A stretch of DNA of 64,000 bases from positions 25,277 to 89,276 of the forward strand of contig CAWEKC010000003.1 in assembly GCA_963809665.1 (NCBI GenBank), in the 5' to 3' direction. The position numbers and the translations under genes were made by a program. The number at the start of each line of letters is the position of its first letter. Position 1 is the first letter of the stretch. Below the pieces are notes generated by a model. The model did no database searches and was not told the origin of the DNA. It worked only from the letters and a program-made list of their open reading frames with translations. Positions 17 through 23,305 of the stretch are shown here, one piece after another. This stretch comes from Candidatus Gottesmanbacteria bacterium. Its GTDB lineage: Bacteria > Patescibacteriota > Microgenomatia > UBA10105 > UBA927.

Positions 17-1963
17 ATGGCTGCCACATACACCGTCAAACAGGTCGCAGAAATACTAGGATATAGCACAAATAGTATTTATACCTTCCTCAAAGAAAAA
101 CGCATCAAAGGCGTCCGGGTAGGCAAAGGCAGATTCCGCATTCCGCAAAGCGAATTGAACCGGTTACTTCTTATTTCCAAGAGTCAGACAAGCATGGCGA
201 AAGAGCAGACAGGTATGGTTCCCATAACCGGGACTATTATATCGCCGGATATGGGAGGTATTCCGTTACACGAACAACACCACGTCTTTTCTCTTTCGGT
301 ATTCGGCACAACAAGGACGGTGACTGCGAGCATTTTCGATTGGTTTCTTGGTACTGGGGCGCTGGTTTCCGGCGTTGCCCTGTTCCTTTTCAACCAGACG
401 TTCGACGTTGTACACGTCCAATCGGTGGCGCCGATCATGCCGGCAGTTCGTATTCTCCTCATCGGCGGTGGCATCGGAATACTCCTGACGAATCTTACCT
501 ATACCGCCCACCAAACATGGCACAGAGTATTCCATGGGATCCTGGGTATTGCCGGTATCATCATGACGGTACTTTTAGTATTGACCAGGGATATAGATGC
601 GGTTGCTATCTATGGAACATTAACAGGTGTGATTATCCTTACTATGTTTGTCCGATTGGGGAAAGTTATCCCGTTTGCCCTCTATCTTACGCTCTTGGCG
701 GCAACCGCACCTATTGTCGCGTTTATAGCACCAACTGATTTTCATGTGCTGGCCTTAACCAACGCACTGAATACGACACCTGAAATCACTACCATTATAT
801 TATCGATCCTGTGTATTGTATTCATTCTTCTCCTTTGGGTAGGTCTGTACTGGAAGAAGGTGCTGTTCTGGTTAAGCACCTATGCTGCGGCAACGGCATA
901 TTTTGCATTGGCGTTTTGGTGTGCGTACGACCAATTCTGGTCCCGTGCGTTCTTTTTCATGATTATCGCACTCACATGTATGTATCTGCCGTCGTGGAAT
1001 GACCTTATCACGACCCGGAATAAAAAAGCGCACACAGTAGCCATCGGTGTTTTTTTAGCGATCATAATGGTAGCCCTTACGGGTGTCACGATTGTTCACG
1101 TGACCCAGCTTAATGTTATCGCGACTGTTGAGCGGGAAAATACTCAGAAGGTAGATTATGCCCGTGCGTCCATGGAAGGCGATCTTCGGAGTGTTAAATC
1201 CACAATATCGACAGCATCCATCAATCCGGATTTGGTGACCGCAACTGAGGAAAAAAACACGACATCGCTTATGGATTTGAGCCGCATCATGTTCGACAGC
1301 AGCAACAGTATTCAGAGGCTAGTCATATTGGACAAAGACGGTCAGGTGCTCTTTATGTATCCATTGGGTCAGTCTGGTGAGACGGATTTATCGTTCCGCG
1401 ATTACTTTATCCAGGCGAGGGACACCGGCAGGCTTTATGTGTCCGATATTTTTGAAACGCGCGTTGATAATACGCACCGGAAAGTCGTTACAATCGCTTC
1501 TCCGATTGTTGACGCGGACAAGCAGTTCGTCGGAGTCCTGGCCGCATCCCTTGATTTGGAAGCTATCAGCGCCCGCCTGCAAAAAATTGCAGTGGTTGAC
1601 CGCGGAGAATACATCATTGTACTTGATAGACATGGGAAACGGATCATACATCCCGTATCGTCTCTCCTCGGTACGGATACGGAACCCACTGACCCGACAC
1701 TGTTAGCGTTTCAGGGAAAAACAGGAGTGGGAGAAGGCGATACGTACGATGGAATTCATTCCCTGATTGCGTATACTCCCATCAGCTCTCTTCAATGGGC
1801 GATTGCACTTAAAGCTCCATATAACAATATTTATGCGCTTTCCAGTACGGCGAACATTGTCGTTGCAGGATTTATCATCGTCAGTATCATAATTGCCGCT
1901 ATCATATTCCAACTGGACTACATATATAAATATAAGCAGAATAATGACGGAGGTGGTCCATGA
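17..1963 (+). CDS. Membrane-bound one-component regulator: N-terminal Xis/MerR-type HTH, polytopic membrane region, C-terminal extracytoplasmic Cache-like sensor domain
   Basis: 648-aa ORF. N-terminus ([40 protein letters not shown]) resembles excisionase-family HTH_17, like the small Xis protein at 23105-23305. About 8 hydrophobic helices follow. The C-terminal 250 aa ([38 protein letters not shown]...[12 protein letters not shown]) is Cache/dCache-like. The stop overlaps the start of the next gene (ATGA). Confidence 0.6.
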
Positions 1964-4900
1964 TGTCCCGTGAAATCACGGGAGATCAGACGGTTCCGCC
2001 CTCGGGCGGTCTTGTCATTTTATTGGGACGCGTAAAATTAGCCTCAAAAACCGGAATTTACAAGTTTTTACAAGTATTCACCAAAAAAAACACCTGTTTG
2101 TACTACTTTTCCCAAACCCAGGGTGGCGGAATTTCGATCTTTGCACTTCTATTCATGACTATCCTACTCTTTCTGGGTATTACGGTTATGAAGAGCGGGA
2201 TCATTATTCCTCAACAATTAACGTCGCTTGATATCAATACCTCACAGCAAACCGGTATTGCACCGATACCGGCTCTCACAGCTGACGTGTTCTCTAAAAG
2301 CGATTTTTCCGGACCGTTTCTTGTAGTGGTTACACGGGCCGACGGGTCGTATTCCTATGCAATAGTGGATCAGGGAATACTTGTGGACGGTCATTTTGAG
2401 GGAGATGTACGTCTGCATTATCCGAACGGCGATTATGGTGTCATGGTGGAGCAACCCGATAAGTCCGTTCTGTTTATGACCAAGAAAGGCGGACGAGAAA
2501 CGGTGATCCTTACTTATCCGCTCATTGCAGCAATAAGATTGCCGGATGAGTCTATGGTGCCGGTAGAATTCCGTGATGCAACAATCCGCGACGGGGCATT
2601 GGTCGGCGATTTTCTTTTTTTTGAATACGCTGATAGAAAGCAAGTAACGGGCTACGTGACGCCGCGCGGGCAAAAATCGCAATTATCGGCGACACCGACA
2701 CTGACATCGCCTGATCCGGCCACATTACTGACACAGCGAGAAATACTGAAGCTCTATTTTGATATAGTCGGAAACGGTGATGTCAACATATTGGGTGTTA
2801 CAACAGAGAATAACGACACCAACGGATCGGTTAGTATTCAGCCGGGCGGTTTGGTATCAAGCGTCATTGTGGCAGAGCGCAATATCGATGAAGGCACCGT
2901 CCGACTCGTTTCGCCGCAGGGAGTCGCTGTAGGGGCCAACGTAAATATATCACAGCTTCTTCCCCAACTTACCGGTGTCGGAGGTTCATCTTTAACACAA
3001 TTAATCACGCAACTCATTAATCAGGGCGGGAATATTTCGGGAATCGGTGGTGCTGGCGCTACCGGACCGACAGGCCCCGCGGGATCAAGCGGTACAAACG
3101 GTGCGTCTATTACCGGTCCGACGGGGGCTACCGGTGCCGGTGCAACAGGTGCAACAGGAATTCAGGGTGATTCCGGAAGTCAGGGACCGGTCGGTGCAAC
3201 CGGAGAAGCAGGGTCCGGTGGCAGCGGCGGACCAACGGGTAGTACCGGAGCCACGGGCAACGCAGGAGCAAACGGTGATGCAGGCCCAACAGGATCAACG
3301 GGAGCAACTGGAAATGTAGGTTCAAATGGTATAAGCGGTCCAACGGGCGCCACAGGAATGTATGGCCCGACTGGTTCAACAGGAGGAACCGGTTCAGCGG
3401 GTGCAAATGGTCCTACAGGATCCACCGGAGCAACCGGATCAGCTGGTGCGGTTGGACCAACCGGTAGTACCGGGAATATGGGATCTGCAGGAGCATCTGG
3501 TCCAACCGGATCAACGGGCGCGACAGGGAATATCGGGGTTATTGGTGAAACAGGACCGACAGGAACAATAGGTCCTACCGGATTTGCCGGAGGAGCAGGT
3601 CCAACCGGAAGTACTGGTAATAACGGGCCAACAGGATCTACCGGACCAACCGGAAATGTAGGAGCTAATGGAGAAGTTGGTCCAACCGGAGCAATGGGTG
3701 TCACCGGAACTGCCGGAGGTGCGGGTCCTACAGGTCCAACCGGCATAGTCGGAGCCGTAGGAGCTAATGGTCCTACTGGTTCAACCGGAACCAATGGGAG
3801 TATCGGAGAACAAGGATCAACCGGCGCAACCGGAATTATCGGAACACAAGGTAGTTCCGGTCCTACCGGGTCTACAGGTGCAACTGGATTTAATGGTTCA
3901 TCCGGTCCCACAGGATCAACAGGAGCAACGGGAACACAAGGAGCTGTTGGGAGTTCCGGACCTACCGGTTCTACCGGAGCAGGTGGAGCACAAGGCAATT
4001 CTGGACCAACCGGAAGTACCGGAGCCACAGGAACACAGGGAGCTGTAGGTTCTTCCGGACCTACCGGATCAACGGGAGCTACGGGAACAGGCGGAACTCA
4101 AGGGTCATCCGGACCGACAGGTTCAACAGGTGCAACTGGAAGTGCAGGGGCCAATGGTCCCACGGGTTCAACAGGTGCAACTGGAATTGAAGGGGCCAAT
4201 GGTCCCACGGGTTCAACGGGGGCTACCGGAACGGGCGGAGCTAATGGTGCTTCCGGACCTACGGGACCTACTGGCGCAGGCGGAGCACAAGGATCCTCCG
4301 GACCGACAGGTGCTTCCGGTGCAACTGGAATAGGTGGACTACAAGGTTCATCCGGTCCCACAGGATCAACAGGAGCGACAGGAACACAAGGAGCTGTAGG
4401 TAGTTCCGGACCTACTGGGTCAACCGGTGCCACAGGTGGAGGTGGAGCTAACGGTCCTACGGGTTCATCAGGATCTACAGGTTCAACAGGAGCTAATGGT
4501 CCCACAGGTTCAACAGGAGCTACGGGTTCAGCAGGAGCAAACGGCCCTACGGGTTCATCCGGATCTACAGGTTCAACAGGAGCTAATGGTCCTACAGGTT
4601 CAACAGGAGCCACAGGAACGCAAGGAGCTGTAGGTAGTTCCGGACCTACGGGATCAACGGGAGCAGGAGGACTACAGGGAGAATCCGGTCCTACAGGCGC
4701 AACAGGAGCTACAGGAACACAGGGAGCTGTAGGTTCTTCCGGACCTACCGGATCAACGGGAGCAGGCGGAACCCAAGGTTCCTCCGGTCCTACGGGTTCA
4801 ACAGGGGCCACGGGAAATCAGGGATCTATAGGTTCTTTCGGACCCACCGGGAGTACCGGCGCCGAAGGATTACAAGGGTCCTCCGGTCCTACGGGTTCAA

Positions 4901-7900
4901 CAGGGGCCACGGGAAATCAGGGATCTGTAGGTTCTTCCGGACCCACCGGGAGTACCGGCGCCGAAGGATTACAAGGGTCCTCCGGTCCTACGGGATCAAC
5001 GGGAGCAACCGGAGGTGCAGGAGCCAATGGACCTACGGGTTCAACAGGAGTCACAGGAACACAAGGAGCTGTTGGTAGTTCCGGACCCACCGGTTCAACC
5101 GGATCTACGGGTTTAGTAGGAGCCAATGGACCAACGGGTTCAACAGGAGCAACAGGAACACAAGGAGCAAATGGAGCTTCCGGACCAACCGGTTCAACCG
5201 GAGCAGGCGGAACTCAGGGTTCCTCCGGACCTACAGGTTCAACCGGCGCAACCGGAGATGCTGGCGCCAATGGTCCCACAGGTTCAACCGGCGCAACCGG
5301 AGGTGCTGGCGCCAATGGTCCAACTGGTGCAACAGGATCTACGGGTCCAGCAGGAGCAAACGGTCCTACGGGTTCATCAGGTGCAACAGGAACACAAGGA
5401 GCTGTAGGGAGTTCCGGACCTACGGGATCAACGGGAGCAGGAGGACTACAGGGAGAATCCGGTCCAACAGGTGCAACCGGTGCCACCGGAACACAAGGAG
5501 CTGTAGGGAGTTCCGGTCCCACAGGTGCAACCGGAGCTGCAGGATTACAAGGTTCCTCCGGACCTACCGGGAGTACGGGTGCCACCGGAACACAAGGAGC
5601 TGTTGGTAGTTCCGGACCCACCGGGTCAACGGGTGCAACCGGAGGTGCTGGTGCCAATGGTCCCACAGGATCTACAGGATCTACAGGTGCAGGCGGAGCT
5701 AATGGCCCCACAGGATCTACAGGATCTACGGGTGCAGGCGGAGCTAATGGCCCCACCGGGTCAACGGGAGCTACAGGAACAGGCGGAGGTGCTGGACCTA
5801 CGGGTTCAACAGGAGTCACAGGAACACAAGGAGCTGTTGGTAGTTCCGGACCCACCGGGTCAACGGGAGCTACAGGAACAGGCGGCGCTAATGGTGCTTC
5901 CGGACCTACGGGATCTACTGGCGCAAATGGTCAAGAAGGCCCCACTGGAGCAACGGGTCCTACCGGTTCACAAGGTGGAGCTGCGGGTGCTTCCGGTCCC
6001 AGTGGTGCGACCGGTCCCACAGGAACTGCCGGAGCACAAGGTTCATCCGGACCCACCGGGAATACCGGCGCCGAAGGACTCCAAGGAGAATCCGGTCCCA
6101 CAGGTGCAACCGGAGCCACAGGAACGCAAGGATCCGTAGGTTCTTCCGGTCCCACAGGTGCAACAGGATCTGCAGGATTACAAGGATCATCCGGACCTAC
6201 CGGGTCTACAGGATCTACGGGTACGGGCGGAAGTGCTGGTCCTACTGGGAGTTCGGGCGCAACCGGAACCCAAGGATCCGTAGGTTCTTCCGGTCCCACA
6301 GGGTCAACGGGAGCAGGAGGACTACAGGGAGAATCCGGTCCTACGGGTGCAACAGGTGCAGGCGGAGCCAATGGTCCCACCGGTGCAACCGGAGCCACCG
6401 GAACCCAAGGAGCCGTTGGGAGTTCCGGTCCCACCGGGTCAACCGGCGCCGGAGGGTTGCAAGGTTCTTCAGGACCAACCGGGCAACAGGAGCAACCGGA
6501 ACCGGAGGCGCTAATGGTGCATCCGGTCCCACCGGGTCAACGGGATCTGCAGGATTACAAGGGTCATCTGGTCCGACTGGAAGTACCGGTGCAACCGGAG
6601 GTGCAGGAGCCAATGGTCCCACAGGGTCTACCGGTACAGGCGGCGCTAATGGTGCATCCGGACCAACGGGCGCAACAGGTGCAGGTGGAGCCAATGGTCC
6701 CACCGGTGCAACCGGAGCCACCGGAACCCAAGGAGCCGTTGGGAGTTCCGGTCCCACCGGGTCAACGGGATCTGCAGGATTACAAGGGTCATCTGGTCCG
6801 ACTGGAAGTACCGGTGCAACCGGAGGTGCAGGAGCCAATGGTCCCACAGGGTCAACCGGCGCCGGAGGGTTGCAAGGTTCTTCAGGACCAACCGGGTCAA
6901 CAGGAGCAACCGGAACCGGAGGCGCTGATGGGTGCATCCGGTCCCACCGGGTCAACGGGATCTGCAGGATTACAAGGGTCATCTGGTCCGACTGGAAGTA
7001 CCGGTGCAACCGGAGGTGCAGGAGCCAATGGTCCCACAGGGTCTACCGGTACAGGCGGCGCAATGGTGCATCCGGACCAACCGGGTGCAACCGGAGCCAC
7101 CGGAACCCAAGGAGCCGTTGGGAGTTCCGGTCCCACCGGGTCAACGGGATCTGCAGGATTACAAGGGTCATCTGGTCCGACTGGAAGTACCGGTGCAACC
7201 GGAGGTGCAGGAGCCAATGGTCCCACAGGGTCTACCGGCGCAGGTCAGGCGGCGCAATGGTTGCATCCGGACCAACGGGCGCAACAGGTGCAGGTGGAGC
7301 CAATGGTCCCACCGGTGCAACCGGAGCCACCGGAACCCAAGGAGCCGTTGGGAGTTCCGGTCCCACCGGGTCAACGGGATCTGCAGGATTACAAGGGTCA
7401 TCTGGTCCGACTGGAAGTACCGGTGCAACCGGAGGTGCAGGAGCCAATGGTCCCACAGGGTCAACCGGCGCCGGAGGGTTGCAAGGTTCTTCAGGACCAA
7501 CAGGCAGCACTGGAGCAACCGGAACCGAAGGAGCGTTGGGCAGTTCCGGTCCCACCGGGTCAACGGGATCTGCAGGATTACAAGGGTCATCTGGTCCGAC
7601 TGGAAGTACCGGTGCAACCGGAGGTGCAGGAGCGAATGGCCCCACAGGATCTACCGGTACAGGCGGCGCCAATGGTGCGTCTGGACCAACCGGGTCAACC
7701 GGAGCAACCGGAACCCAAGGAGCCGTTGGGAGTTCCGGTCCCACCGGGTCAACGGGATCTGCAGGATTACAAGGGTCATCTGGTCCGACTGGAAGTACCG
7801 GTGCAACCGGAGGTGCAGGAGCCAATGGTCCCACAGGGTCAACCGGCGCCGGAGGGTTGCAAGGTTCTTCAGGACCAACAGGCAGCACTGGAGCAACCGG

Positions 7901-8124
7901 AACCGGAGGCGCTAATGGTGCATCCGGTCCCACCGGGTCAACGGGATCTGCAGGATTACAAGGGTCATCCGGACCTACGGGAAGTACAGGCGCAACAGGT
8001 GCAGGAGCCAATGGTCCCACAGGGTCAACCGGCACGGAACAGGAGCAGTGGAGTCCAGGTCCCACAGGGTCAACGGGACTGCAGGATTACAAGGGTCATC
8101 TGGTCCGACTGGAAGTACCGGTGA
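1960..8124 (+). CDS. Giant collagen-like (Gly-X-Y) surface protein, N-terminal part. A 360-aa N-terminal domain with a TM/signal-anchor is followed by [10 protein letters not shown]-type triple-helix repeats, in frame from about 3050 to 6485. Downstream of 6485 the ORF continues only in a shifted frame.
   Basis: ORF from ATGATG at 1960. A hydrophobic segment ([20 protein letters not shown]) is followed by a globular region. From about nt 3050 there is an uninterrupted (G-X-Y)n run of more than 1100 triplets rich in [10 protein letters not shown]. At about 6485 a 1-nt deletion relative to sister repeats (gggcaacagg versus gggtcaacagg) moves the GXY phase to another frame. Confidence 0.6.
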
Positions 8125-9240
8125 ACCAGGTGCAGGAGCCAATGGTCCCACCGGTGCAACCGGAGCCACCGGAACCCAAGGAGCCGTTGGGAGTTCCGGT
8201 CCCACCGGGTCAACGGGATCTGCAGGATTACAAGGGTCATCTGGTCCGACTGGAAGTACCGGTGCAACCGGAGGTGCAGGAGCCAATGGTCCCACAGGGT
8301 CAACCGGCGCAACAGGTGCAGGTGGAGCCAATGGTCCCACCGGTGCAACCGGAGCCACCGGAACCCAAGGAGCCGTTGGGAGTTCCGGTCCCACCGGGTC
8401 AACGGGATCTGCAGGATTACAAGGGTCATCTGGTCCGACTGGAAGTACCGGTGCAACCGGAGGTGCAGGAGCCAATGGTCCCACAGGGTCAACCGGCGCC
8501 GGAGGGTTGCAAGGTTCTTCAGGACCAACAGGCAGCACTGGAGCAACCGGAACCGGAGGCGCTAATGGTGCATCCGGTCCCACCGGGTCAACGGGATCTG
8601 CAGGATTACAAGGGTCATCTGGTCCGACTGGAAGTACCGGTGCAACCGGAGGTGCAGGAGCCAATGGTCCCACAGGGTCAACCGGCGCAACAGGTGCAGG
8701 TGGAGCCAATGGTCCCACAGGGTCAACCGGCGCAACAGGTGCAGGTGGAGCCAATGGTCCCACAGGATCTACCGGTACAGGCGGCGCTAATGGTGCATCC
8801 GGACCAACGGGCGCAACAGGTGCAGGTGGAGCCAATGGTCCCACCGGTGCAACCGGAGCCACCGGAACCCAAGGAGCCGTTGGGAGTTCCGGTCCCACCG
8901 GGTCAACGGGATCTGCAGGATTACAAGGGTCATCTGGTCCGACTGGAAGTACCGGTGCAACCGGAGGTGCAGGAGCCAATGGTCCCACAGGGTCTACCGG
9001 CGCCGGAGGGTTGCAAGGTTCTTCAGGACCAACCGGGTCAGCACAGGAGCAACCGGAACCGGAGGCGCTAATGGTGCATCCGGTCCCACCGGGTCAACGG
9101 GATCTGCAGGATTACAAGGGTCATCTGGTCCGACTGGAAGTACCGGTGCAACCGGAGGTGCAGGAGCCAATGGTCCCACAGGGTCAACCGGCGCAACAGG
9201 TGCAGGTGGAGCCAATGGTCCCATACAGGCGGCGCTAATG
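6480..9240 (+). pseudogene. Middle segment of the collagen-like gene with at least 7 frame-disrupting indels. The GXY phase hops between frames (about 6485, 6935, 7063, 7245, 8040-8110, 9046, 9226). Either the giant gene is pseudogenized or this is a repeat-assembly artefact.
   Basis: I aligned repeat copies by eye. Differences from the consensus copy include gctgatgggtgcatcc versus gctaatggtgcatcc (+1), gcgcaatggtg versus gcgctaatggtg (-1), a 2-nt insertion at about 9046 and a 13-nt deletion at about 9226. ORFs 6870..9071 (frame 0) and 8048..9238 (frame 2) carry GXY segments. Confidence 0.5.
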
Positions 9241-11300: not shown

Positions 11301-13142
11301 GGTGCGTCTGGACCAACCGGTGCAACAGGAGCCACCGGAAGTGCAGGAGTTAATGGTCCCACAGGGTCAACCGGCGCCACCGGAGGTGCAGGAGCCAACG
11401 GTGCATCAGGTCCTACCGGCGCAACCGGGGCTACCGGGGAAGTAGGAAATGAAGGGCAAGTCGGACGAACCGGTCCTACAGGCTCAACGGGAGCCACGGG
11501 CAATGCTGGAGCAAATGGTCCAACAGGATCTACCGGCGCAACAGGAAATGCTGGAGGAAATGGTGTTGGTGGGCCTACGGGTTCAACCGGCGCAACCGGA
11601 ACTGGCGGAGGCGCCGGTGCCGGAGGTCCGACCGGGTCCACAGGCGCAACAGGTTCCGCCGGAGGCGGAGGAGCAAATGGTCCCACGGGTTCAACGGGTG
11701 CTACTGGTGGAGGTGGAGTAAACGGTCCCACTGGCCGAACAGGAGCCACCGGAGCCACGGGCAATGCTGGAGGCGCCGGTCCCACCGGGTCCACAGGCGC
11801 AACAGGTACTGCTGGCGGCGGAGGAGCCAATGGTCCTACCGGGTCAACAGGCGCAACAGGAAATGCTGGAGGAAATGGTGTTGGTGGTCCCACAGGATCA
11901 ACAGGTGCCACCGGAACTGGCGGAGGTGCCGGTGCCGGAGGCCCGACCGGGTCCACCGGCGCTACTGGTGGAGGCGGAGCAAACGGCCCCACCGGTCGAA
12001 CAGGAGCCACCGGAGCCACAGGGGTTGCAGGTGCGAATGGTCCCAGTGGATCAACCGGCGCAACCGGTGCAGCCGGAGCGATGGGCGCCGGAGGGACTGC
12101 ACTATTAACATCAGTTGCCAACCTTATTCAACCCTACCCGGCAAATGGTCTCAGTTTTGCTTTAGGGAATACCGGCGGCGGAGATCTTACCAATGCAGCC
12201 ACTTCTTCTGCGTACATCGTCTTTTTTGCCGCAAATCAACCCGGCGGTGGTGGATCAGCAGGGGATATTTATATGGGATCTACGTTGACGCTTGGTAATA
12301 ATACGACGGGTGGAACTATTACAACTAAAGATGCAGGAGAAGCGTTAACGATAGATACCAGTACGAACGGATCTATAAGTGTCAGTACGGGGACGACAGG
12401 AAAAACAATTTCAATCGGTACGAACGCATCTGCTGCAAATACAATTGCGATTGGTTCTTCCAATGCATCAGCAACACTTGCTCTTAATGGCGGCGACGAC
12501 TGGTCGGTTTCGACAGCAGGACTTGCGGTACTTGGTGTGACGGCAAACAGTTTTACTTTTAATCCCGGATCAGGTCCTGTGTATGCAGGGACTGCCCGGC
12601 CGACACGTAAAGTGACCCTTACACCCGAATATGCCGGTGCAGTGTTGACAGGGGCAGGGACAGGAACCATGACGTCTGATTTTTGTGAACAAGGGTATAG
12701 TGCCAACATCACGGATACTAATACGGGCGCGTGTGAATCCGGGCAAGTTCACAATTATTACACATGGACATCCGCATCCGGTTCAAATACGTATAGTATA
12801 TATGTACGGTGGAGGGTACCGGACAATTTCTCTGCTACCGGTTGGACATCAGCAGGGACAATTACCAATCCGATTACAGTTTGGGCCCGACGGTCTGATT
12901 CTACTGACGGAACGGTTACCGTAACCCTGTATGATACTGCCGGTACAGCCGAAAATACTACCAGCGGGACCCAAGTGGCGGGGTCCAACAGTACGTGGAC
13001 CCAGACGTCGCTTGAAGCAACACCATTTGAAGGAACGTATACCGCCGGTGGATATATCACCCTGAAGATTGATCTCCAAGTGACTGGTACAGATACAACC
13101 ATGGTAGGTGAGATAGATATTGATTATCTGTCAACAAATTAA
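9072..13142 (+). CDS. Collagen-like protein, C-terminal part. The frame is open from 9072 and the first ATG is at 9459. About 950 GXY triplets are followed by a 345-aa beta-rich C-terminal globular domain (candidate trimerisation or receptor-binding head).
   Basis: Uninterrupted GXY from about 9240 to 12100. The C-terminal segment ([14 protein letters not shown]...[27 protein letters not shown]) is Thr/Ser/Gly-rich and beta-strand-like, reminiscent of BclA/C1q-like or phage-fibre distal domains. Stop TAA at 13140-13142. Confidence 0.65.
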
Positions 13143-13143
13143 T

Positions 13144-16100
13144 ATGAAACACACAATAACGAAGTGGCTGTGTTTCATTACAATATTCAATGTATTGTCA
13201 GGGACTTTAATGCCCGTAGCAGTTGCGCAGGAGTCAGCTTCTACGTCTGCGACATCGGATATATCAAATCCCCCGGAAGCAACACCATCTACCCTTTTGG
13301 ATCAACTTGAGGCAACAGATAGCGCATCCATAAGCGCCATAATTGACACACCGGTTAGTTCAATATCTGCGGATCTTTTGACCCCGACCCCGACACTGGA
13401 AATGCTCACCGGTCCTTCCGGGGTATTATCTCCGTCTGCATCTATGAAAGGCCCACCTCACTTCCGTGCGATGATGAGACACGCGTTTCGGGCAGGAGAA
13501 GTCCCGTCCGTCATTGTTGATGCCCTTACCATATCATCTATAAAAACAACTGTGCGGGATAGTAAAGGTACGGTTATAGACAGCACCCCTTCTATAGAAA
13601 CGTATGACGGGGGAATACGTGTGTCCGTCATCCCGAAAACGTCCATGAAACCCGGGAAATATACAATAGTTATTGAAGACACCTCGACCGGAATGACCAT
13701 TACGCAGGATTTTTTATGGGGGGTCTTGGCTTTCAATACGGATCAGGCGACATACAATCCCGGAGATACGGCAGACATTGCGCTTGCGGTGTTGGATGAT
13801 ATAGGTATGATGGTTTGTGACGCAGATGTAACCCTTACTATTCTCAGTCCGGCGAGAACAACAACAACACTTTCTACTGCGGACGGGACGATCCGTGTAA
13901 CGCCGGCGTGTACACTTCATGATTTTACCCTCAAACCCGATTACGAGACCGAATTTCAAACATCCGATGAGGGAGTCTATCAGGTTTTGTTGTCTGCAAC
14001 GACAAAAAACGGCACCAATGCGATTCAGGATTCATTTCAGGTATCATCCGATATGCCGTTTCAGGTGAAACGAATAAGTGCGACCCGTATTTATCCGCCG
14101 AAACCGTATCCGATGACTATCGATATTACCGCCAATGAAGATTTTTCAGGGATTGTGACCGAAACGGTTCCAGAAGATTTTACCATTATGCCTCTTGCCG
14201 GGGTACAGCCGTATGCCGATATGGGGGCGGCCGCTCCCGTCACGGAGCCGCAAACACCCATACTGCTGAGCATGCCGTTTGAGGGGAATTACCCGGTGAC
14301 GCTCGGGTTTGGCGACCGTATTAAGGATCCGCAGGTGAAACAACTGTACGAGCAGAATGGTTTAAAAGGTCACGACGGAGCGGATTTTGCCATGCCAATC
14401 GGTACGCAGGTATTGGCAGTTGACGCGGGGACGGTTTCCCGTATTGCGGATAATCCGTACGGGACAACGGTTGTTATTGATCACCCGTGGGGACGAAGTT
14501 ATTATGGGCATCTGAGTGTTGTGCAGGTTAAAGTTGGGGACATGGTCAAGAAAGACGCGCCCATTGCGTTATCAGGGAATACGGGTCTTACGACCGGAGC
14601 GCATTTGCATTTTGGCATGAAACTGACAACAAATGATGTGAACAACGGGTATTACGGGAAAATAGACCCGATGCCGTACTTGACCTCATCGGTGACATAT
14701 CAATCCGAAAGCAAAGGAAAACAGATTTCCTGGAATGTGGATATCAAATCCGGTGAAAAAATTCAACTCGGTTATACATTTAAAGCGCCTGAGGTCAGCC
14801 CGCGATTTTATCTGATCGGACCGCTCACGTTCCGCGCGTCAAATCCCGCGGAGCCTGCTCCTGCCGTACCTGCGGATAATCCGTTTGTCCTGGGAATCGC
14901 TTCTGCAAGCGCGGCACCTTCGGAGGCGTCCGGGTCGGCAACAGCCACACCGTCGGCCGTTCTAGCAGCGACTGCTGCTGCACCAACAAATAGTATAGTG
15001 TATCAGGAGCCGCGCCGTTGGCAGATTGCGGCGGACGCAGTCGGTTTCATTGGGAGTGTCAGTAACGTTGGCAACACCAGTGGAGGCGATGTCACACTCA
15101 CTCTCTCAGGTCTTGGGCTTCAAGAGGATGATCTTGTTATTGCTGCCTACAGTATCGCTGATGCTGACAATGTTGATATGGCTATGGCGGAGGTGGGCGG
15201 GATTGGGGGATGGACGGAGGTTGCCGACTTGTTCTCTGATGATACGTATGATGCTAATCTCGGCGTATATTACAAGGTGATGGGTGCGTCACCGGACGCA
15301 TCGGTGATATTTGATGGTGTGGGCGGTACTGACACTCAAACAGGCGCGGTAGCGATGGCTTTCCGGGGCGTGGATCCGACGACCCCGATGGACGTGGCGG
15401 CGACCACAGTCTCGGGCGCCTCGGGTCTCAACACTATGCATCCCAACCCGCCATCCATTAATCACAATAATCCCTCCGGCGTCTGGACGGTTATCGCTGG
15501 CAGCAATGTCAATGGTACCCAAGGCGCCCGAACCTTCACGTTCCCGACCGGCTACACAACAAACGCGGTTCAGCGATCCTCAAATGATACCAGTGATGGT
15601 ATTGTCGGACTGGGGTATCGGACGAATCCCTCTGATCCCGAAGATCCCGGCCAGATGACTGCCAGCGGCACCGATGGCACCGGTTACGCTTTTGCCGCCG
15701 TCACCATGGCGCTCAGGCCCGCGCCTGAAGTTCCCGGCATTGACGGGTCGCTGGGCAAAACGTCTGACGGATGGGCCGGGGCAGTACCGGTTTATGGGAC
15801 GTTAACCGGTGGGTTAAGCCAGGGCGATTATCCGTATGCCAGGGCAGAGGTAACCACCGCTGCGAGCCAAACTTTCTATACAGATATGACCTGGGATAGC
15901 GGAGACAGCCGGTTTGAAGGCACAATTTATCCCGGTTCTAATTATTGTATGGGATGCGATGATCCGACATACGGTACGTTCAGTGTGACCGTGGAGTTGG
16001 ATGATAATGCCGGTTTTTCCTCCATTGATTATTCCTCCGACGCAGCCACATTTTCAACGGTCAGAACATACAAGAGGAGTTCTATGGATAATGTAACAAA

Positions 16101-17436
16101 CACTAACTATACTGATTTCAATCCGGTTTGGAGCACTGACCACTGGAATATGTCGATAAGTGATTTTGGGTTTGCTATGCAGAGCGGCACGGGCACAAAT
16201 TTTGCCGTTGCCGTTCCTATCCATCCTGACACGTCATCCCCGAGCAATTTTACCGTAGCCTATAACGGCTCGAGTGTTTCTGCGGGTAGTGCCGAATCAA
16301 CGTCTAACGCCTGGTGGTACAACAGCACATCCCACACACTATATCTGCAATTTGCCTCGCTGACAACCACACTGGTTGATGTGGATATTACGTTTGATAC
16401 CGACACGGACCTTTTCGCTACCAGGTTCAACTGGACGTATACGGCAGACATGGGTTCCCGTCGTTACGCGAACGGCATAATCATTGCCAACCAATACCTT
16501 ACTGCTCCCATATACGGACTGCCTCAAGCTGATTGCGCCAACGACAATGAGTGTGAAGCGGCCGGCATGCAGGCGGAGACGCGCGCCCATGAAGCAGGAG
16601 GACCCGACGAGTCCACCGACTGCATGGAACGGCCCGCGGTCCACGTGGATGATACGCCCGTAGCCGACAACAGGACGCTGGGATATCGGTATGATATCAA
16701 ATGGAAACCAACAGAATGGGCGGACTGGATAACGGAACAGGACAATAATCATTTTGTCATCGTCGAAAATTCGGATGACACGGCAACGACCGGCTGGGGT
16801 CAGCAATTGGACAATGGTATTGCCGCGTTAAGAACCCAAACGTATTATGCAGGGGAAAGATATATCAAGAATGTGTACGCCTTTACCAATAATGATTCCT
16901 CATCACATAAATATCCGATGGTCTGGGAGCGCGAACAATGGCACGCAACCGACAGGCAGGCGAACGATCACGGAAGATTCCAGGGCGATACGTCGGATGT
17001 GGTCATGGAACAAAGGGTATCAATGTCAGGGTACACCTGTCCCTGGCAGACTGCGTATGACAGCGGGACATATATTAATATGGGATTGGTTTATGACAAA
17101 AACAACCTTCCGGATTATGGTATTTTTGCAGTAGAGCCCTTTTTGGCACCGGATACGGCGGAATGGCCGATCGGTATAACAAGCAGTCACGGTACCCAGA
17201 CAACCGATCAGACCGGATTTGAAAAGACCTGGAGTTCGGTGGCTCCCGATGAAACAGTGAGTTTCACTTTCTGGCACGTTCATAACGCCGAAAGTTCCTG
17301 GGCAAACATAGAGTCTGCCATGGATGCAGATTGTGCAGAACTCAATACGTCTGCTCCGTCCGGTCCCACCACCGATCAGCAGATGCGCCACGGTAAATGG
17401 TTTGACAGTGGGGTAGAGCAGGGGTTTACATTCTAG
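13144..17436 (+). CDS. Giant secreted protein (about 1430 aa) with an embedded M23/LytM peptidoglycan endopeptidase domain
   Basis: Signal peptide MKHTITKWLCFITIFNVLSGTLMPVAVAQE. M23 motifs are present: HDGADFAMPIGTQVLAVDAGTV...YGTTVVIDHP...GHLS...SGNTGLTTGAHLHFG (HxxxD...HxH). Big-like beta domains lie N-terminal, and a long Cys-containing C-terminal region has unknown function. The gene starts 2 nt after the collagen gene stop (the ORF track starts at 13120, but the ATG at 13144 follows the stop). Confidence 0.75.
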   Translation: MKHTITKWLCFITIFNVLSGTLMPVAVAQESASTSATSDISNPPEATPSTLLDQLEATDSASISAIIDTPVSSISADLLTPTPTLEMLTGPSGVLSPSASMKGPPHFRAMMRHAFRAGEVPSVIVDALTISSIKTTVRDSKGTVIDSTPSIETYDGGIRVSVIPKTSMKPGKYTIVIEDTSTGMTITQDFLWGVLAFNTDQATYNPGDTADIALAVLDDIGMMVCDADVTLTILSPARTTTTLSTADGTIRVTPACTLHDFTLKPDYETEFQTSDEGVYQVLLSATTKNGTNAIQDSFQVSSDMPFQVKRISATRIYPPKPYPMTIDITANEDFSGIVTETVPEDFTIMPLAGVQPYADMGAAAPVTEPQTPILLSMPFEGNYPVTLGFGDRIKDPQVKQLYEQNGLKGHDGADFAMPIGTQVLAVDAGTVSRIADNPYGTTVVIDHPWGRSYYGHLSVVQVKVGDMVKKDAPIALSGNTGLTTGAHLHFGMKLTTNDVNNGYYGKIDPMPYLTSSVTYQSESKGKQISWNVDIKSGEKIQLGYTFKAPEVSPRFYLIGPLTFRASNPAEPAPAVPADNPFVLGIASASAAPSEASGSATATPSAVLAATAAAPTNSIVYQEPRRWQIAADAVGFIGSVSNVGNTSGGDVTLTLSGLGLQEDDLVIAAYSIADADNVDMAMAEVGGIGGWTEVADLFSDDTYDANLGVYYKVMGASPDASVIFDGVGGTDTQTGAVAMAFRGVDPTTPMDVAATTVSGASGLNTMHPNPPSINHNNPSGVWTVIAGSNVNGTQGARTFTFPTGYTTNAVQRSSNDTSDGIVGLGYRTNPSDPEDPGQMTASGTDGTGYAFAAVTMALRPAPEVPGIDGSLGKTSDGWAGAVPVYGTLTGGLSQGDYPYARAEVTTAASQTFYTDMTWDSGDSRFEGTIYPGSNYCMGCDDPTYGTFSVTVELDDNAGFSSIDYSSDAATFSTVRTYKRSSMDNVTNTNYTDFNPVWSTDHWNMSISDFGFAMQSGTGTNFAVAVPIHPDTSSPSNFTVAYNGSSVSAGSAESTSNAWWYNSTSHTLYLQFASLTTTLVDVDITFDTDTDLFATRFNWTYTADMGSRRYANGIIIANQYLTAPIYGLPQADCANDNECEAAGMQAETRAHEAGGPDESTDCMERPAVHVDDTPVADNRTLGYRYDIKWKPTEWADWITEQDNNHFVIVENSDDTATTGWGQQLDNGIAALRTQTYYAGERYIKNVYAFTNNDSSSHKYPMVWEREQWHATDRQANDHGRFQGDTSDVVMEQRVSMSGYTCPWQTAYDSGTYINMGLVYDKNNLPDYGIFAVEPFLAPDTAEWPIGITSSHGTQTTDQTGFEKTWSSVAPDETVSFTFWHVHNAESSWANIESAMDADCAELNTSAPSGPTTDQQMRHGKWFDSGVEQGFTF

Positions 17437-17446
17437 CCTTGAATGT

Positions 17447-17464
17447 TACTTGTTTTTACAAGTA
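17447..17464. promoter_or_regulatory. Perfect palindrome TACTTGT-TTTT-ACAAGTA between the M23 gene and the next gene: possible operator or weak terminator hairpin
   Basis: Seen directly in the sequence: 7-bp inverted repeat with a 4-nt spacer and no T-tract after it. Confidence 0.25.
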
Positions 17465-17525
17465 TGTACCAAAAATTGATATAGTTTATACTTCTGGATT
17501 CAAACAGTATTCTGCACCCCCGGTA

Positions 17526-17560: not shown

Positions 17561-18289
17561 ATGGCCGTACCGTTACTTTCCCGTAAATATATACTCATAC
17601 TTGGGACAGTGATTCTTCTTATTGCTGCTGCCGCCCCGTCCGTTTATTTCTATCGTCAGTATCAAACCCTTCAAACACAAGTGACTAGAACGGAGACAAA
17701 GGATGACGTGGGCGCATTGACGGCCCGGGTCGGCAAACACATTTTGCTACCCACCGGTGAAACGCCGACGGTGATGACGGTAACGGATAAAGAAAAGCTT
17801 TCCGGTCAGCTGTTCTTTGCCAATTCAAAAAACGGGGATAAGGTGCTGGTGTACGAGAAAGCAAAAAAAGCATTTCTGTATGATCCTGTTGCGGATATTG
17901 TCATAGAGGTGGGGCCTATTGTGGTAACCGCTTCTTCCTCCGGGACACTTTCCACTGCGGTGCCGACGTCGGGGACAAGTTCGGCAACACTGACACCGGC
18001 GTTGCAAAAGACCTATACGTTTGCGCTCCTTAATGCAACACAAGTGTCAGGGCTGACAAAAACATTTGAAGTGAAACTACGGTCCGCCGTGCCTACTGCG
18101 CAGGTTGTATCGCGCGGTAATGCCAAAGGTGATTACTCCACATCGCTGCTTGTGGATGTAGCAGGGACACATAAAGAAGAAATGTCCGTACTTTCGCAGA
18201 CATTAGGGCTGAGCGTGTCTCCGTTGCCGGCCGGTGAATCGACACCTTCGGCGGATTTTCTCATAATATTAGCTGACAATAAAGAGTAA
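17561..18289 (+). CDS. Membrane-anchored LytR_C (LytR/CpsA/Psr C-terminal) domain protein
   Basis: N-terminal TM (ILILGTVILLIAAAAPSVYFY). The C-terminus (TYTFALLNATQVSGLTKTFEVKLRSA...RGNAKGDYSTSLLVDVAG...ADFLIILADN) matches the LytR_C pattern. Confidence 0.5.
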   Translation: MAVPLLSRKYILILGTVILLIAAAAPSVYFYRQYQTLQTQVTRTETKDDVGALTARVGKHILLPTGETPTVMTVTDKEKLSGQLFFANSKNGDKVLVYEKAKKAFLYDPVADIVIEVGPIVVTASSSGTLSTAVPTSGTSSATLTPALQKTYTFALLNATQVSGLTKTFEVKLRSAVPTAQVVSRGNAKGDYSTSLLVDVAGTHKEEMSVLSQTLGLSVSPLPAGESTPSADFLIILADNKE

Positions 18290-18360
18290 TCTTCTTGCTC
18301 CGGAGCCGCCGTTTTTTCTTGCAAAACGCTTTGTATCGTGCCATACTGTTTTTGCAACGT

Positions 18361-19131
18361 ATGTCTGATAATTTGCCGACGAACCCCATATTTGCCGATT
18401 TAGCCACAGAGCATGTACTCACGACGTTTTTCGAGCATATGCCGCTGTTAGGCGTCGGGCTTGATACCCAGGGGAAGGTCACATACATCAACCCGTTTTT
18501 TTTGACCGTCACGGGTTTCACATCCGAAGAAGTGATCGGGAAAAACTGGTTTGAGACATTTATCCCGCAACAGCAGCGTACCATGCTTGTTTCAACATTT
18601 ACGGAAATTCTTGCGAAGGAAAGTTTTACGCGGTACGAAAACGCTATTTTTACGAAATCCGGCGAACTGCGGCAAATCTCGTGGACAAATGCAGTTCTTA
18701 AAAACACTGCCGGGAAACCATCGGGTACGCTGAGTATCGGTGAAGATATAAGCAATCTGAAAAACGCGGAAGAATCCTTGCTGGAGAGCGAGGAACGGTT
18801 CCGGATCATGTCTGAATTGTCGCAGGAGGGTATTGCCATCCACGATCACGGCGTTATAGTATTTTGTAACCGGAAACTTTCGGACATGTCAGGATATACT
18901 GTTGCCGAAATGGTCGGCAAAAACGTTCTCTCATTCTTCCCGCCGGAGTCACAGGCCATTATGAAGAAACATATCGACGGAGAAATGGAAGGATGTTACA
19001 AGGTTATAGGGAATAAAAAAGACGGGGGAACCATGTCGGTCGAAATATGCGGTAAAATGGGAGAATACCGCGGCCACCGGGTCCGGATGACAACGTTACG
19101 GGAGCTTACCGGCTCAGACAGCGCAACATAA
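18361..19131 (+). CDS. Tandem PAS-domain protein with no output domain (the ORF track starts at 18295; the ATG at 18361 is more plausible)
   Basis: Two PAS-like blocks (FFLTVTGFTSEEVIGKNWFETFIP... and RFRIMSELSQEGIAIHDHGVIVFCNRKLSDMSGYTVAEMVGKNV...). Confidence 0.6.
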   Translation: MSDNLPTNPIFADLATEHVLTTFFEHMPLLGVGLDTQGKVTYINPFFLTVTGFTSEEVIGKNWFETFIPQQQRTMLVSTFTEILAKESFTRYENAIFTKSGELRQISWTNAVLKNTAGKPSGTLSIGEDISNLKNAEESLLESEERFRIMSELSQEGIAIHDHGVIVFCNRKLSDMSGYTVAEMVGKNVLSFFPPESQAIMKKHIDGEMEGCYKVIGNKKDGGTMSVEICGKMGEYRGHRVRMTTLRELTGSDSAT

Positions 19132-23104: not shown

Positions 23105-23305
23105 TTAGACTGCGCCTTTTTGTTGAAGTCCCAGGAGCCAGAGTACCGCCTCCTTTTTATATCGGCGGTCGCCCCGCGAGTTAATACGTATTGCCGGCAA
23201 CTTTCCCCGTTTGCCCCACCGCTTGATCGTAAGGGGAGACACACGCAGAATTTTTGCTACCTCCCGGACGGTTAATAAATCCGGCCATTCATCACCAAGT
23301 GCCAT
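23105..23305 (-). CDS. Excisionase-family (HTH_17) small DNA-binding protein
   Basis: LLTVREVAKILRVSPLTIKRWGKRGKLPAIRI matches the Xis-type HTH. Confidence 0.65.
   Translation of the reverse strand: MALGDEWPDLLTVREVAKILRVSPLTIKRWGKRGKLPAIRINSRGDRRYKKEAVLWLLGLQQKGAV

Follow-up and report, generated by a model that had tools for sequence, protein, structure and literature searches.

A gene of 648 codons that opens a 64,000-nucleotide stretch of DNA from a Candidatus Gottesmanbacteria bacterium (hereafter the window) was analyzed together with its relatives in other genomes. Its product combines an N-terminal winged helix-turn-helix (HTH) of the excisionase (Xis)/BldC type, a bundle of nine transmembrane (TM) helices, a double-Cache domain predicted to face outward, and a tenth TM helix. 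The gene is followed by one for a giant collagen-like fibre. We consider it moderately probable that the protein is a transmembrane one-component transcription regulator (TTR) dedicated to this neighbouring fibre locus.

The open reading frame (ORF) lies on the + strand, starts with an ATG preceded by a GAGG Shine-Dalgarno (SD) sequence, and ends with the TGA at 1961-1963; the coordinates of its parts and of the other features are collected in Table 1. Pfam placed HTH_17 (PF12728) at residues 5-51 with 38.8 bits against a gathering score of 27, and dCache_1 (PF02743) at residues 369-597 with 86.7 bits against 45. The NCBIfam model TIGR01764, "excisionase family DNA-binding", matched with 34.1 bits (cutoff 28.8), so that the HTH is assigned to a DNA-binding family by two collections. 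Nine TM helices (106-362) between the HTH and the Cache domain, and a tenth (610-633/644) after the latter, were obtained concordantly by hydropathy and AlphaFold2. The preliminary description of the window had proposed an HTH, about eight TM helices and a Cache-like domain; the domains and their order were recovered by Pfam, AlphaFold2 and Foldseek, but the helix count had to be corrected to nine plus one.

The full-length AlphaFold2 model, for which 40 homologues served as input, reached a predicted local distance difference test score (pLDDT) of 81.5 and a predicted template-modelling score (pTM) of 0.69. In this model TM9 extends without a break into the long helix that opens the Cache domain (helix 336-401), and the sensor adopts the dCache fold, double PAS-like with a long N-terminal helix. 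Among the 40 aligned homologues, the loops of the bundle carried on average 7.2 lysines and arginines on the cytoplasmic side versus 2.9 on the outer side, and the inner value exceeded the outer one in all 40. With a cytoplasmic HTH, nine helices bring the Cache domain outside and TM10 returns the C-terminus inward. The predicted topology is therefore that of an outer Cache domain with the HTH and C-terminus in the cytoplasm, in agreement with the extracytoplasmic placement suggested earlier.

Having a DNA-binding domain and at least one TM region, the 648-aa protein falls within the published definition of TTRs (PMC10269533). No Trans_reg_C match appeared in the Pfam scan and the TM helices number ten, which sets the protein apart from the ToxR/CadC group.

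When the C-terminal domain of the model was compared with the PDB by Foldseek, it matched the dCache ligand-binding domains of Mlp24, Mlp37, PctA/B/C, CtaA, Tlp3, KinD and DctB, with a target-normalised TM-score of up to 0.84 (ligand-binding domain of Mlp24); together with the Pfam score, this bore out the initial assignment as Cache-like. By sequence, the closest solved relative was the sensor of B. subtilis KinD (E=6e-6). R461 corresponds in the alignment to the residue replaced in the KinD R131A structure and is an arginine in 34 of the 40 homologues, while Y448, P449 and Y463 are invariant.

The TM bundle has conserved residues of its own, namely the NIFDWF motif at the start of TM1, R145, W168 and W308-S-R310. 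A separate model of the TM region alone gave a pLDDT of 84.4 and a pTM of 0.84 and had no match among the solved structures of the PDB by Foldseek (best E=0.18, TM-score at most 0.28). The only echo in Pfam was DUF6056, partial and below threshold (26.7 bits against 27). On these results there was no support for the bundle as a known transporter or glycosyltransferase, and it was assigned neither to the GT-C-like membrane enzymes nor to DUF6056. A hidden Markov model (HMM) of the nine helices, run against 1.84 billion representative proteins, returned 197 clusters only, and in all of them the module occupied the same place in a protein of about 600-690 aa, or the sequence was a fragment. Because the HMM finds the bundle solely in this setting, it appears to be a private module of the HTH/9-TM/dCache_1 architecture.

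A word-indexed search yielded 228 homologues, nearly all of 610-705 aa and with both domains. The few that are named are annotated as "DNA-binding protein" or "excisionase family DNA binding protein" from Candidatus Gottesmanbacteria. About 44 full-length loci were available among contigs, at one genome per species (loci are designated L001 and onward), so the architecture first described in a single window recurs in other genomes. The records of the full-length loci belong to Gottesmanbacteria, Roizmanbacteria or the Patescibacteria group. Judging from the named records, which are Gottesman- and Roizmanbacteria, the family appears to be confined to one lineage of the Candidate Phyla Radiation (CPR). 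Many species-representative records (L014, L016, L019, L023, L024, L026 and others), derived from automated third-party-annotation (TPA) assemblies, are labelled "uncultured Gammaproteobacteria" or "Pseudomonadales"; these are almost certainly placeholder or incorrect names.

Conservation was distributed very unevenly along the protein. Mean pairwise identity was 80% in the HTH, versus 34% in the TM bundle, 39% in the Cache domain and 17% in the linker, which fits a conserved nucleic-acid target of the HTH. The recognition helix and wing contain the invariant patterns S17-T-N-S-I-Y-x-F-L-K26 and R34-x-G-x-G-R-F-R41.

In relatives ranging in identity from 74% to about 23%, the regulator gene is followed on its own strand by a giant ORF, which carries a TM anchor and a long Gly-X-Y array with a conserved juxtamembrane domain of about 300 aa between them. 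Such a collagen-like ORF stands directly downstream of the regulator gene in about 37 of 42 species-level loci. In about 25 of these the two genes overlap (ATGA or GTGA) or abut (TGATG), and in the remainder a gap of 58-174 nt separates them. The proposal of a one-component membrane regulator tied to the fibre gene was thus the best supported of the readings, through this pairing and through the repeat arrays described below that co-occur with the HTH; one amendment is that the tie is not only transcriptional, as the HTH-less variants indicate.

In the window, the Gly-X-Y frame runs on beyond the first fibre ORF, with frame switches, to about position 12,100. Between 6,200 and 9,200 the frame passes f0 → f2 → f0 → f2 → f1 → f2, which splits the giant gene into the overlapping ORFs 1960-8124, 6870-9071, 8048-9238 and 9238/9459-13142; the tail of the 2054-aa fibre ORF is out-of-frame repeat sequence. 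The switches could be indel errors of long-read assembly in a repeat of about 9 kb, or genuine frameshifts.

Direct repeats of TTGTAA-type units provide a candidate operator for the HTH. Scanning 11.25 kb of leaders with the dimer pattern T[TA]GT[AG]A-N4-T[TAG]G[TG][AG]A gave 37 matches (3.3 per kb), every one on the + strand, where 0.11 were expected from shuffled leaders. The 400 nt past the regulator stop contained 13 matches, all on the - strand. No dimer was present in 86 kb of regulator coding sequence, and the density elsewhere was 0.02-0.03 per kb; the enrichment was about 100-fold in the regulator leader and about 30-fold just past the stop. Of the 20 dimers found elsewhere, 17 were still linked to the locus, lying just past the 3' end of the divergent gene or about 2.5-2.7 kb upstream. 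Unit-to-unit spacing peaked at 10 bp (47 cases) and 11 bp (13 cases), with a harmonic at 20-22 bp, and the opposite strands gave no matches. Leader arrays sit between promoter and start codon. In the window, the dimer at 2058-2073 on the - strand is the sole perfect copy in 64 kb, and it lies 95 nt past the regulator stop, at the position homologous to that in relatives.

Phased pairs were present at 40 of 45 HTH-bearing loci and at none of 4 HTH-less loci (Fisher one-sided p=0.0006, a value that ignores phylogeny). The arrays thus go together with the HTH, in support of their being its operator. Operators of recombination directionality factors of the Xis type (Apl, Xis) are likewise direct repeats one helical turn apart, to which the proteins bind cooperatively, and transcriptional regulators are known among them (PMC7498355). 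BldC forms head-to-tail oligomers on direct repeats whose number of units is variable (PMC5859096). On this basis the TTGTAA arrays are taken as the candidate operator of the HTH, the evidence for regulation being indirect but specific.

Alternatively, the arrays could belong to another factor, act as -35-like promoter boxes, or function at the RNA level, with HTH_17 binding something else. A second candidate DNA-binder, the divergently encoded protein of about 311 aa, is always adjacent, and arrays also occur at the 3' end of its gene. The fibre-proximal repeats read TTTACA on the + strand, which resembles the -35 consensus, and the one at 17456 stands 19 nt before a TATAGT; moreover, the leader (+) and post-stop (-) arrays are reverse complements, as RNA pairing would have it. 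Against these possibilities, the arrays are absent from all four HTH-less loci, whereas the GATAAG and TTGACA elements described next persist in one of them (L059), and direct repeats at one-turn spacing are the hallmark of HTHs in this class (PMC7498355, PMC5859096). The third array varies in orientation, which speaks against RNA pairing in particular. This explanation of the arrays is held to be unlikely.

A TTGACA box was present in 46 of 46 upstream regions of relatives. In 26 of the 46 loci (strict pattern), GATAAG-N5-GATAAG direct repeats lie 30 or about 41 nt upstream of this box, for example in L001:9779-10000 and L009:9725-10000, and in 14 a mirrored copy faces the divergent gene. These repeats were also considered as the operator of the HTH and were downgraded, owing to their presence in 26 of 46 loci only and to the retention of the GATAAG/TTGACA promoter in HTH-less L059, which points to another factor. 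They may be the operator of the divergent protein. The only signal in the latter was a weak C-terminal DeoR-like winged HTH, with 19-21.5 bits against a gathering score of 21, which was exceeded in L009 only.

The junction between regulator and fibre gene contains further conserved elements. As the preliminary description had stated, the ATG at 1960-1962 overlaps the TGA of the regulator gene, and a GGAGG is located at 1949-1953. A terminator-like GC hairpin with a T-rich tail begins 33 nt past the stop, within the annotated 5' end of the fibre ORF; hairpin and repeat array both fall in its first 125 nt. A GC-rich hairpin with a T-rich tail was observed 26-47 nt past the stop in about 37 of 46 loci, versus 8% of control windows. 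In the window, the region 1955-2110 folds better than shuffled sequences (z=-2.7). A loop-anchored count distinguished eleven different inner stems among the loci, each paired with its own complement. The hairpins were selected as perfect stems, which makes 100% pairing a matter of construction, and only the diversity of the stems, their fixed position and the 8% control rate therefore carry weight.

RNAalifold, applied to the post-stop hairpins as aligned by MAFFT, yielded nothing, since the alignment put the variable stems out of register. Rfam gave no credible family in the L001 leader or junction, and no sigma-70-type promoter of the fibre gene was convincingly identified. A second perfect hairpin of 7 bp, CCCGTGA-AAT-TCACGGG at 1966-1985 on the + strand, follows the ATGA directly; it is found in L001 and not in more distant relatives.

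Many lineages have a separate ATG for the fibre gene, located 75-155 nt past the stop and downstream of hairpin and array. In the clade of the window, by comparison, the frame is open from the ATGA through both elements. Compensatory changes of the hairpin within this clade alter the encoded peptide (PPSGG versus PRLRRG), and this suggests that the junction hairpin has been selected as a nucleic-acid structure. SD-like sequences occur in the last codons of the regulator gene in 28 of 41 loci, which explains the conserved C-terminal "GGxP" of the protein; conservation of this motif probably reflects a nucleotide-level constraint. In the window (1941-1960), "GG(x)P" coincides with the GGAGG and with the CCATGA junction of the downstream ORF.

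The functional start of the fibre gene in the window may be the ATG at 1960 or a downstream codon such as the TTG at 2098, and translational coupling from regulator to fibre is possible. The translationally coupled operon proposed initially is real as far as the overlap and the SD sequence are concerned, but it is too simple a description: a terminator-like element and a candidate operator part the two genes functionally, and in many other lineages the fibre gene starts at the downstream ATG.

Variants without the HTH were also found. About 8% of the 197 clusters begin directly with the TM bundle, and four genuine HTH-less loci were identified (L058, L059, L060 and L062). A further candidate, P0179, was discarded, as its contig is truncated and the HTH wing RFRISEDELRRV can be read upstream in the same frame. 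In the three HTH-less loci with downstream sequence (L058, L060 and L062), the stop of the gene is still overlapped by a collagen-like fibre ORF homologous to the others, and neither hairpin nor array lies between the two. The neighbourhoods of these three are entirely unlike the usual one and contain ribosomal protein L33, UDP-glucose dehydrogenase or a response-regulator receiver that stands alone. The fibre at L062:7703-12100 matched Pfam Collagen and, weakly, Peptidase_S74, an intramolecular-chaperone domain of phage tail-spike and fibre proteins, which suggests trimeric, self-processing fibres. At L060:5545-5916, a stand-alone response-regulator receiver gene (123 aa) precedes the TM-dCache gene at a distance of 84 nt, a hint that another signalling partner may be used when the HTH is missing.

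These loci bear on a second explanation, in which the core of the protein is not regulatory. The 9-TM/dCache part would then be a dedicated membrane partner of the fibre (an anchor, an assembly or export platform, or a chaperone binding glycan or fibre), and the HTH a later addition that tethers the locus to the membrane for transertion (insertion during transcription) of the giant protein or gives feedback on the state of assembly. Besides the persistence of the fibre overlap in unrelated neighbourhoods, several observations speak for it. The 9-TM module is confined to the family and always accompanied by the Cache domain, the N-terminal TM anchor and conserved juxtamembrane domain of the fibre would adjoin the Cache domain, and the overlapping or abutting ORFs suggest co-production. 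TTR-driven transertion has been proposed elsewhere, for the type III secretion system 2 (T3SS2) of V. parahaemolyticus (PMC9977878). Conversely, the comparisons of the bundle described above revealed no likeness to a known transporter, glycosyltransferase or assembly factor, and both the HTH, with its extreme conservation, and the phased repeats peculiar to the locus argue for sequence-specific DNA recognition in the HTH-bearing clade. We regard this explanation as a possibility of secondary rank.

The regulatory and membrane-partner roles are not mutually exclusive. In a combined form, which we rate as rather improbable, the 9-TM/dCache protein would physically associate with the fibre and monitor its presence, its load or host contact that the fibre transmits, and the tethered Xis-like HTH would have been acquired in Gottesman- and Roizmanbacteria along with a cis-regulatory cassette made up of the terminator and the one-turn direct-repeat arrays. 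If true, the locus would constitute a self-contained feedback circuit, with the state of the fibre controlling fibre transcription from the membrane; in the clade of the window, translation through the terminator from the ATGA would add a layer of translation-dependent antitermination.

A third explanation takes the family name at face value and makes the protein the excisionase, or recombination directionality factor, of an integrated mobile element. TIGR01764 and HTH_17 are both above threshold, the best natural relative of the HTH in the PDB is a phage protein (Xis Gp37 of mycobacteriophage Pukovnik, 4j2n, E=0.0057), and inverted arrays of direct repeats flank the gene. However, no integrase or recombinase was found in any neighbourhood examined, and the flanks consist of conserved housekeeping and cell-envelope genes. 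Upstream lie MreB, a WecG-type glycosyltransferase (GT), several GT4s and a GT5, then the divergent gene; downstream genes encode an M23 peptidase, PAS, Rpe, DeoC, GalT-like and L10 proteins, those of the window being housekeeping genes. This synteny is stable over about 45 species, and the HTH forms one protein with a membrane sensor of 600 aa. With no recombinase and with chromosomal synteny conserved, the mobile-element excisionase was rejected, its likelihood being negligible.

For the favoured regulator, the following mechanism is proposed. The Xis/BldC-type winged HTH is predicted to reside in the cytoplasm on a flexible tether of about 50 residues, anchored in the membrane by the nine-helix bundle, with dCache_1 clamped between TM9 and TM10 and facing outward. 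HTH monomers would bind the 10-bp-phased TTGTAA repeats head-to-tail and cooperatively at two places. At the leader array, which is transcribed, binding would serve autoregulation, probably as repression by roadblock; at the post-terminator array, located before the conserved start of the fibre protein, it would control fibre expression. The Cache domain and bundle would report an extracellular cue; a small ligand of the carboxylate type is one possibility, the state of the fibre or of the envelope another. This cue would alter the oligomeric state or the availability of the tethered HTHs and hence the formation of cooperative filaments on the repeats; oligomeric state is the most plausible route of the signal, because the flexible linker gives no rigid coupling. 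In the clade of the window, where the fibre ORF is open from the ATGA through the hairpin, re-initiating ribosomes could, more speculatively, suppress termination there.

Several observations weigh against the regulator reading. The linker of about 50 aa offers no obvious rigid route from the Cache domain to the HTH, and the HTH part of the AlphaFold2 model has a pLDDT of only about 64, i.e., moderate confidence. Arrays past the 3' end of the divergent gene occur in either orientation, which a simple operator model does not explain, and the divergent protein could itself own the TTGTAA arrays or the GATAAG repeats. The statistic on the co-occurrence of HTH and arrays includes four HTH-less loci and lacks phylogenetic independence. 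The window opens 16 nt before the ATG, so that the promoter and leader arrays are visible only in relatives, the closest of which with DNA is 74% identical. Finally, the pairing with the fibre gene is kept without the HTH, which implies that the TM-Cache protein has a fibre-related role beyond transcription; to judge from the gene order, the core would thus have a role that is independent of the HTH.

Membrane-bound one-component regulators are already known and widespread. One such protein is BcrR, the bacitracin sensor of Enterococcus, which unites sensor and regulator and has an N-terminal XRE-type HTH and four TM helices without an extracytoplasmic domain. The present protein resembles it in having an N-terminal HTH followed by several TM helices, and differs in the type of HTH, the number of helices and the Cache domain.

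In the survey of TTRs, 50,302 were found, 27% of them with more than two TM regions and up to 22, so polytopic TTRs exist; HTH_17, Cache and Patescibacteria are not mentioned in the text of that survey (PMC10269533). Among the output classes listed for Cache proteins are transcription factors (PMC4822843). Like ToxR, CadC, TcpP, VtrA and ArnR, the protein carries a cytoplasmic DNA-binding domain, membrane segments and an extracytoplasmic sensor on one polypeptide, and it is encoded beside surface genes, as those TTRs are beside the surface or virulence genes that they control. Unlike ToxR and CadC, it has an HTH_17 of the Xis/BldC type instead of an OmpR-type winged helix, ten TM helices including the private 9-TM module, and a dCache_1 sensor.

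With BldC, Xis and Apl the protein shares Pfam HTH_17 and candidate operators made of one-turn direct repeats with variable unit number (PMC5859096, PMC7498355). Those proteins are small (about 55-80 aa), soluble and stand-alone, whereas here a 600-aa membrane sensor carries the domain, whose binding is predicted. The dCache_1 chemoreceptors and kinases (Mlp24, PctA-C, CtaA, Tlp3 and KinD) have the same fold at the same position between two TM helices, but their output is a C-terminal kinase, methyl-accepting chemotaxis protein (MCP) or GGDEF domain, in contrast to an N-terminal DNA-binding output separated from the sensor by nine TM helices.

A literature search found no publication on the HTH/9-TM/dCache_1 family, and nothing specific on Gottesmanbacteria and collagen or on collagen-like surface proteins of the CPR. 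New are the specific combination of a Xis/BldC-type HTH with dCache_1 and a private 9-TM module, the confinement of this architecture to Gottesman- and Roizmanbacteria, the near-obligate pairing with a giant collagen-like fibre, and the readable cis-regulatory cassette.

CPR bacteria, or Patescibacteria, have tiny genomes with few recognisable regulators. To our knowledge, the ways in which these presumed episymbionts sense and attach to their partners are largely unknown. Here, a concrete and testable circuit can be read from sequence in about 45 species, with an output domain, a candidate operator and a fibre target of several thousand residues. It includes a previously undescribed 9-TM membrane module that exists in this context alone, and it has a Xis/BldC-type domain in the output position of a transmembrane sensor. 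Regulatory and structural roles may be told apart by comparison with the naturally occurring HTH-less variants.

Table 1. Features of the window, with positions counted from its first letter.
Feature	Position	Strand	Remarks
Whole gene, HTH_17 / 9-TM / dCache_1 / TM10	17..1963	+	648 aa
Cytoplasmic excisionase/BldC-type winged HTH (predicted), residues 1-53	17..175	+	Pfam HTH_17 at residues 5-51
Linker, disordered, residues 54-101	176..319	+	pLDDT <50; ends in a short beta-hairpin before TM1
9-helix transmembrane bundle, residues ~102-365	320..1111	+	family-specific
Double-Cache sensor domain, predicted extracytoplasmic, residues ~366-605	1112..1831	+	Pfam dCache_1 at residues 369-597
TM10 and short basic cytoplasmic tail	1832..1960	+	last codons GGA GGT form the GGAGG Shine-Dalgarno at 1949-1953
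First ORF of the fibre gene	1960..8124	+	possible N-terminal extension, TM anchor at residues ~58-78, ~300-aa juxtamembrane domain, Gly-X-Y array
Terminator-like GC hairpin CCGCC-CTCG-GGCGG (1996-2009) with T-rich tail TCTTGTCATT	1996..2019	+
Candidate operator, three 10-bp-phased units, TTGTAAAAACTTGTAA + TGGTGA	2058..2083	-	TTGTAA-type
Second TTACAAG-repeat element, ~35 nt	17443..17478	-	near-identical to the element at 2058-2083
Stand-alone 66-aa HTH_17/MerR_1 protein	23105..23305	-	HTH_17 42.8 bits, MerR_1 40.8 bits

The stand-alone HTH protein of the window had been described as having a DNA-binding domain of the same family as the regulator. The common Pfam family HTH_17 was confirmed and is the sole link between the two proteins; pairwise, the likeness of the HTHs is weak (33% over 30 aa, E=3e-4), and the gene lies on the minus strand.

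The fibre cluster is closed by a 1438-aa ORF (13120-17436, + strand) with Peptidase_M23 (82 bits) and a weak MG2 match, which may be a cell-wall hydrolase or a surface protein beside the fibre. The second repeat element is located directly past this last ORF of the cluster and about 90 nt upstream of the ORF at 17561-18289. It is overlapped by the promoter-like arrangement TTTACA-N19-TATAGT on the + strand. The ORF at 17561-18289 (+) encodes 242 aa, to which no function was assigned by sequence, and is followed by a double-PAS protein (18295-19131). The ORFs at 17561-19131 (+) may be further members of the same regulon.

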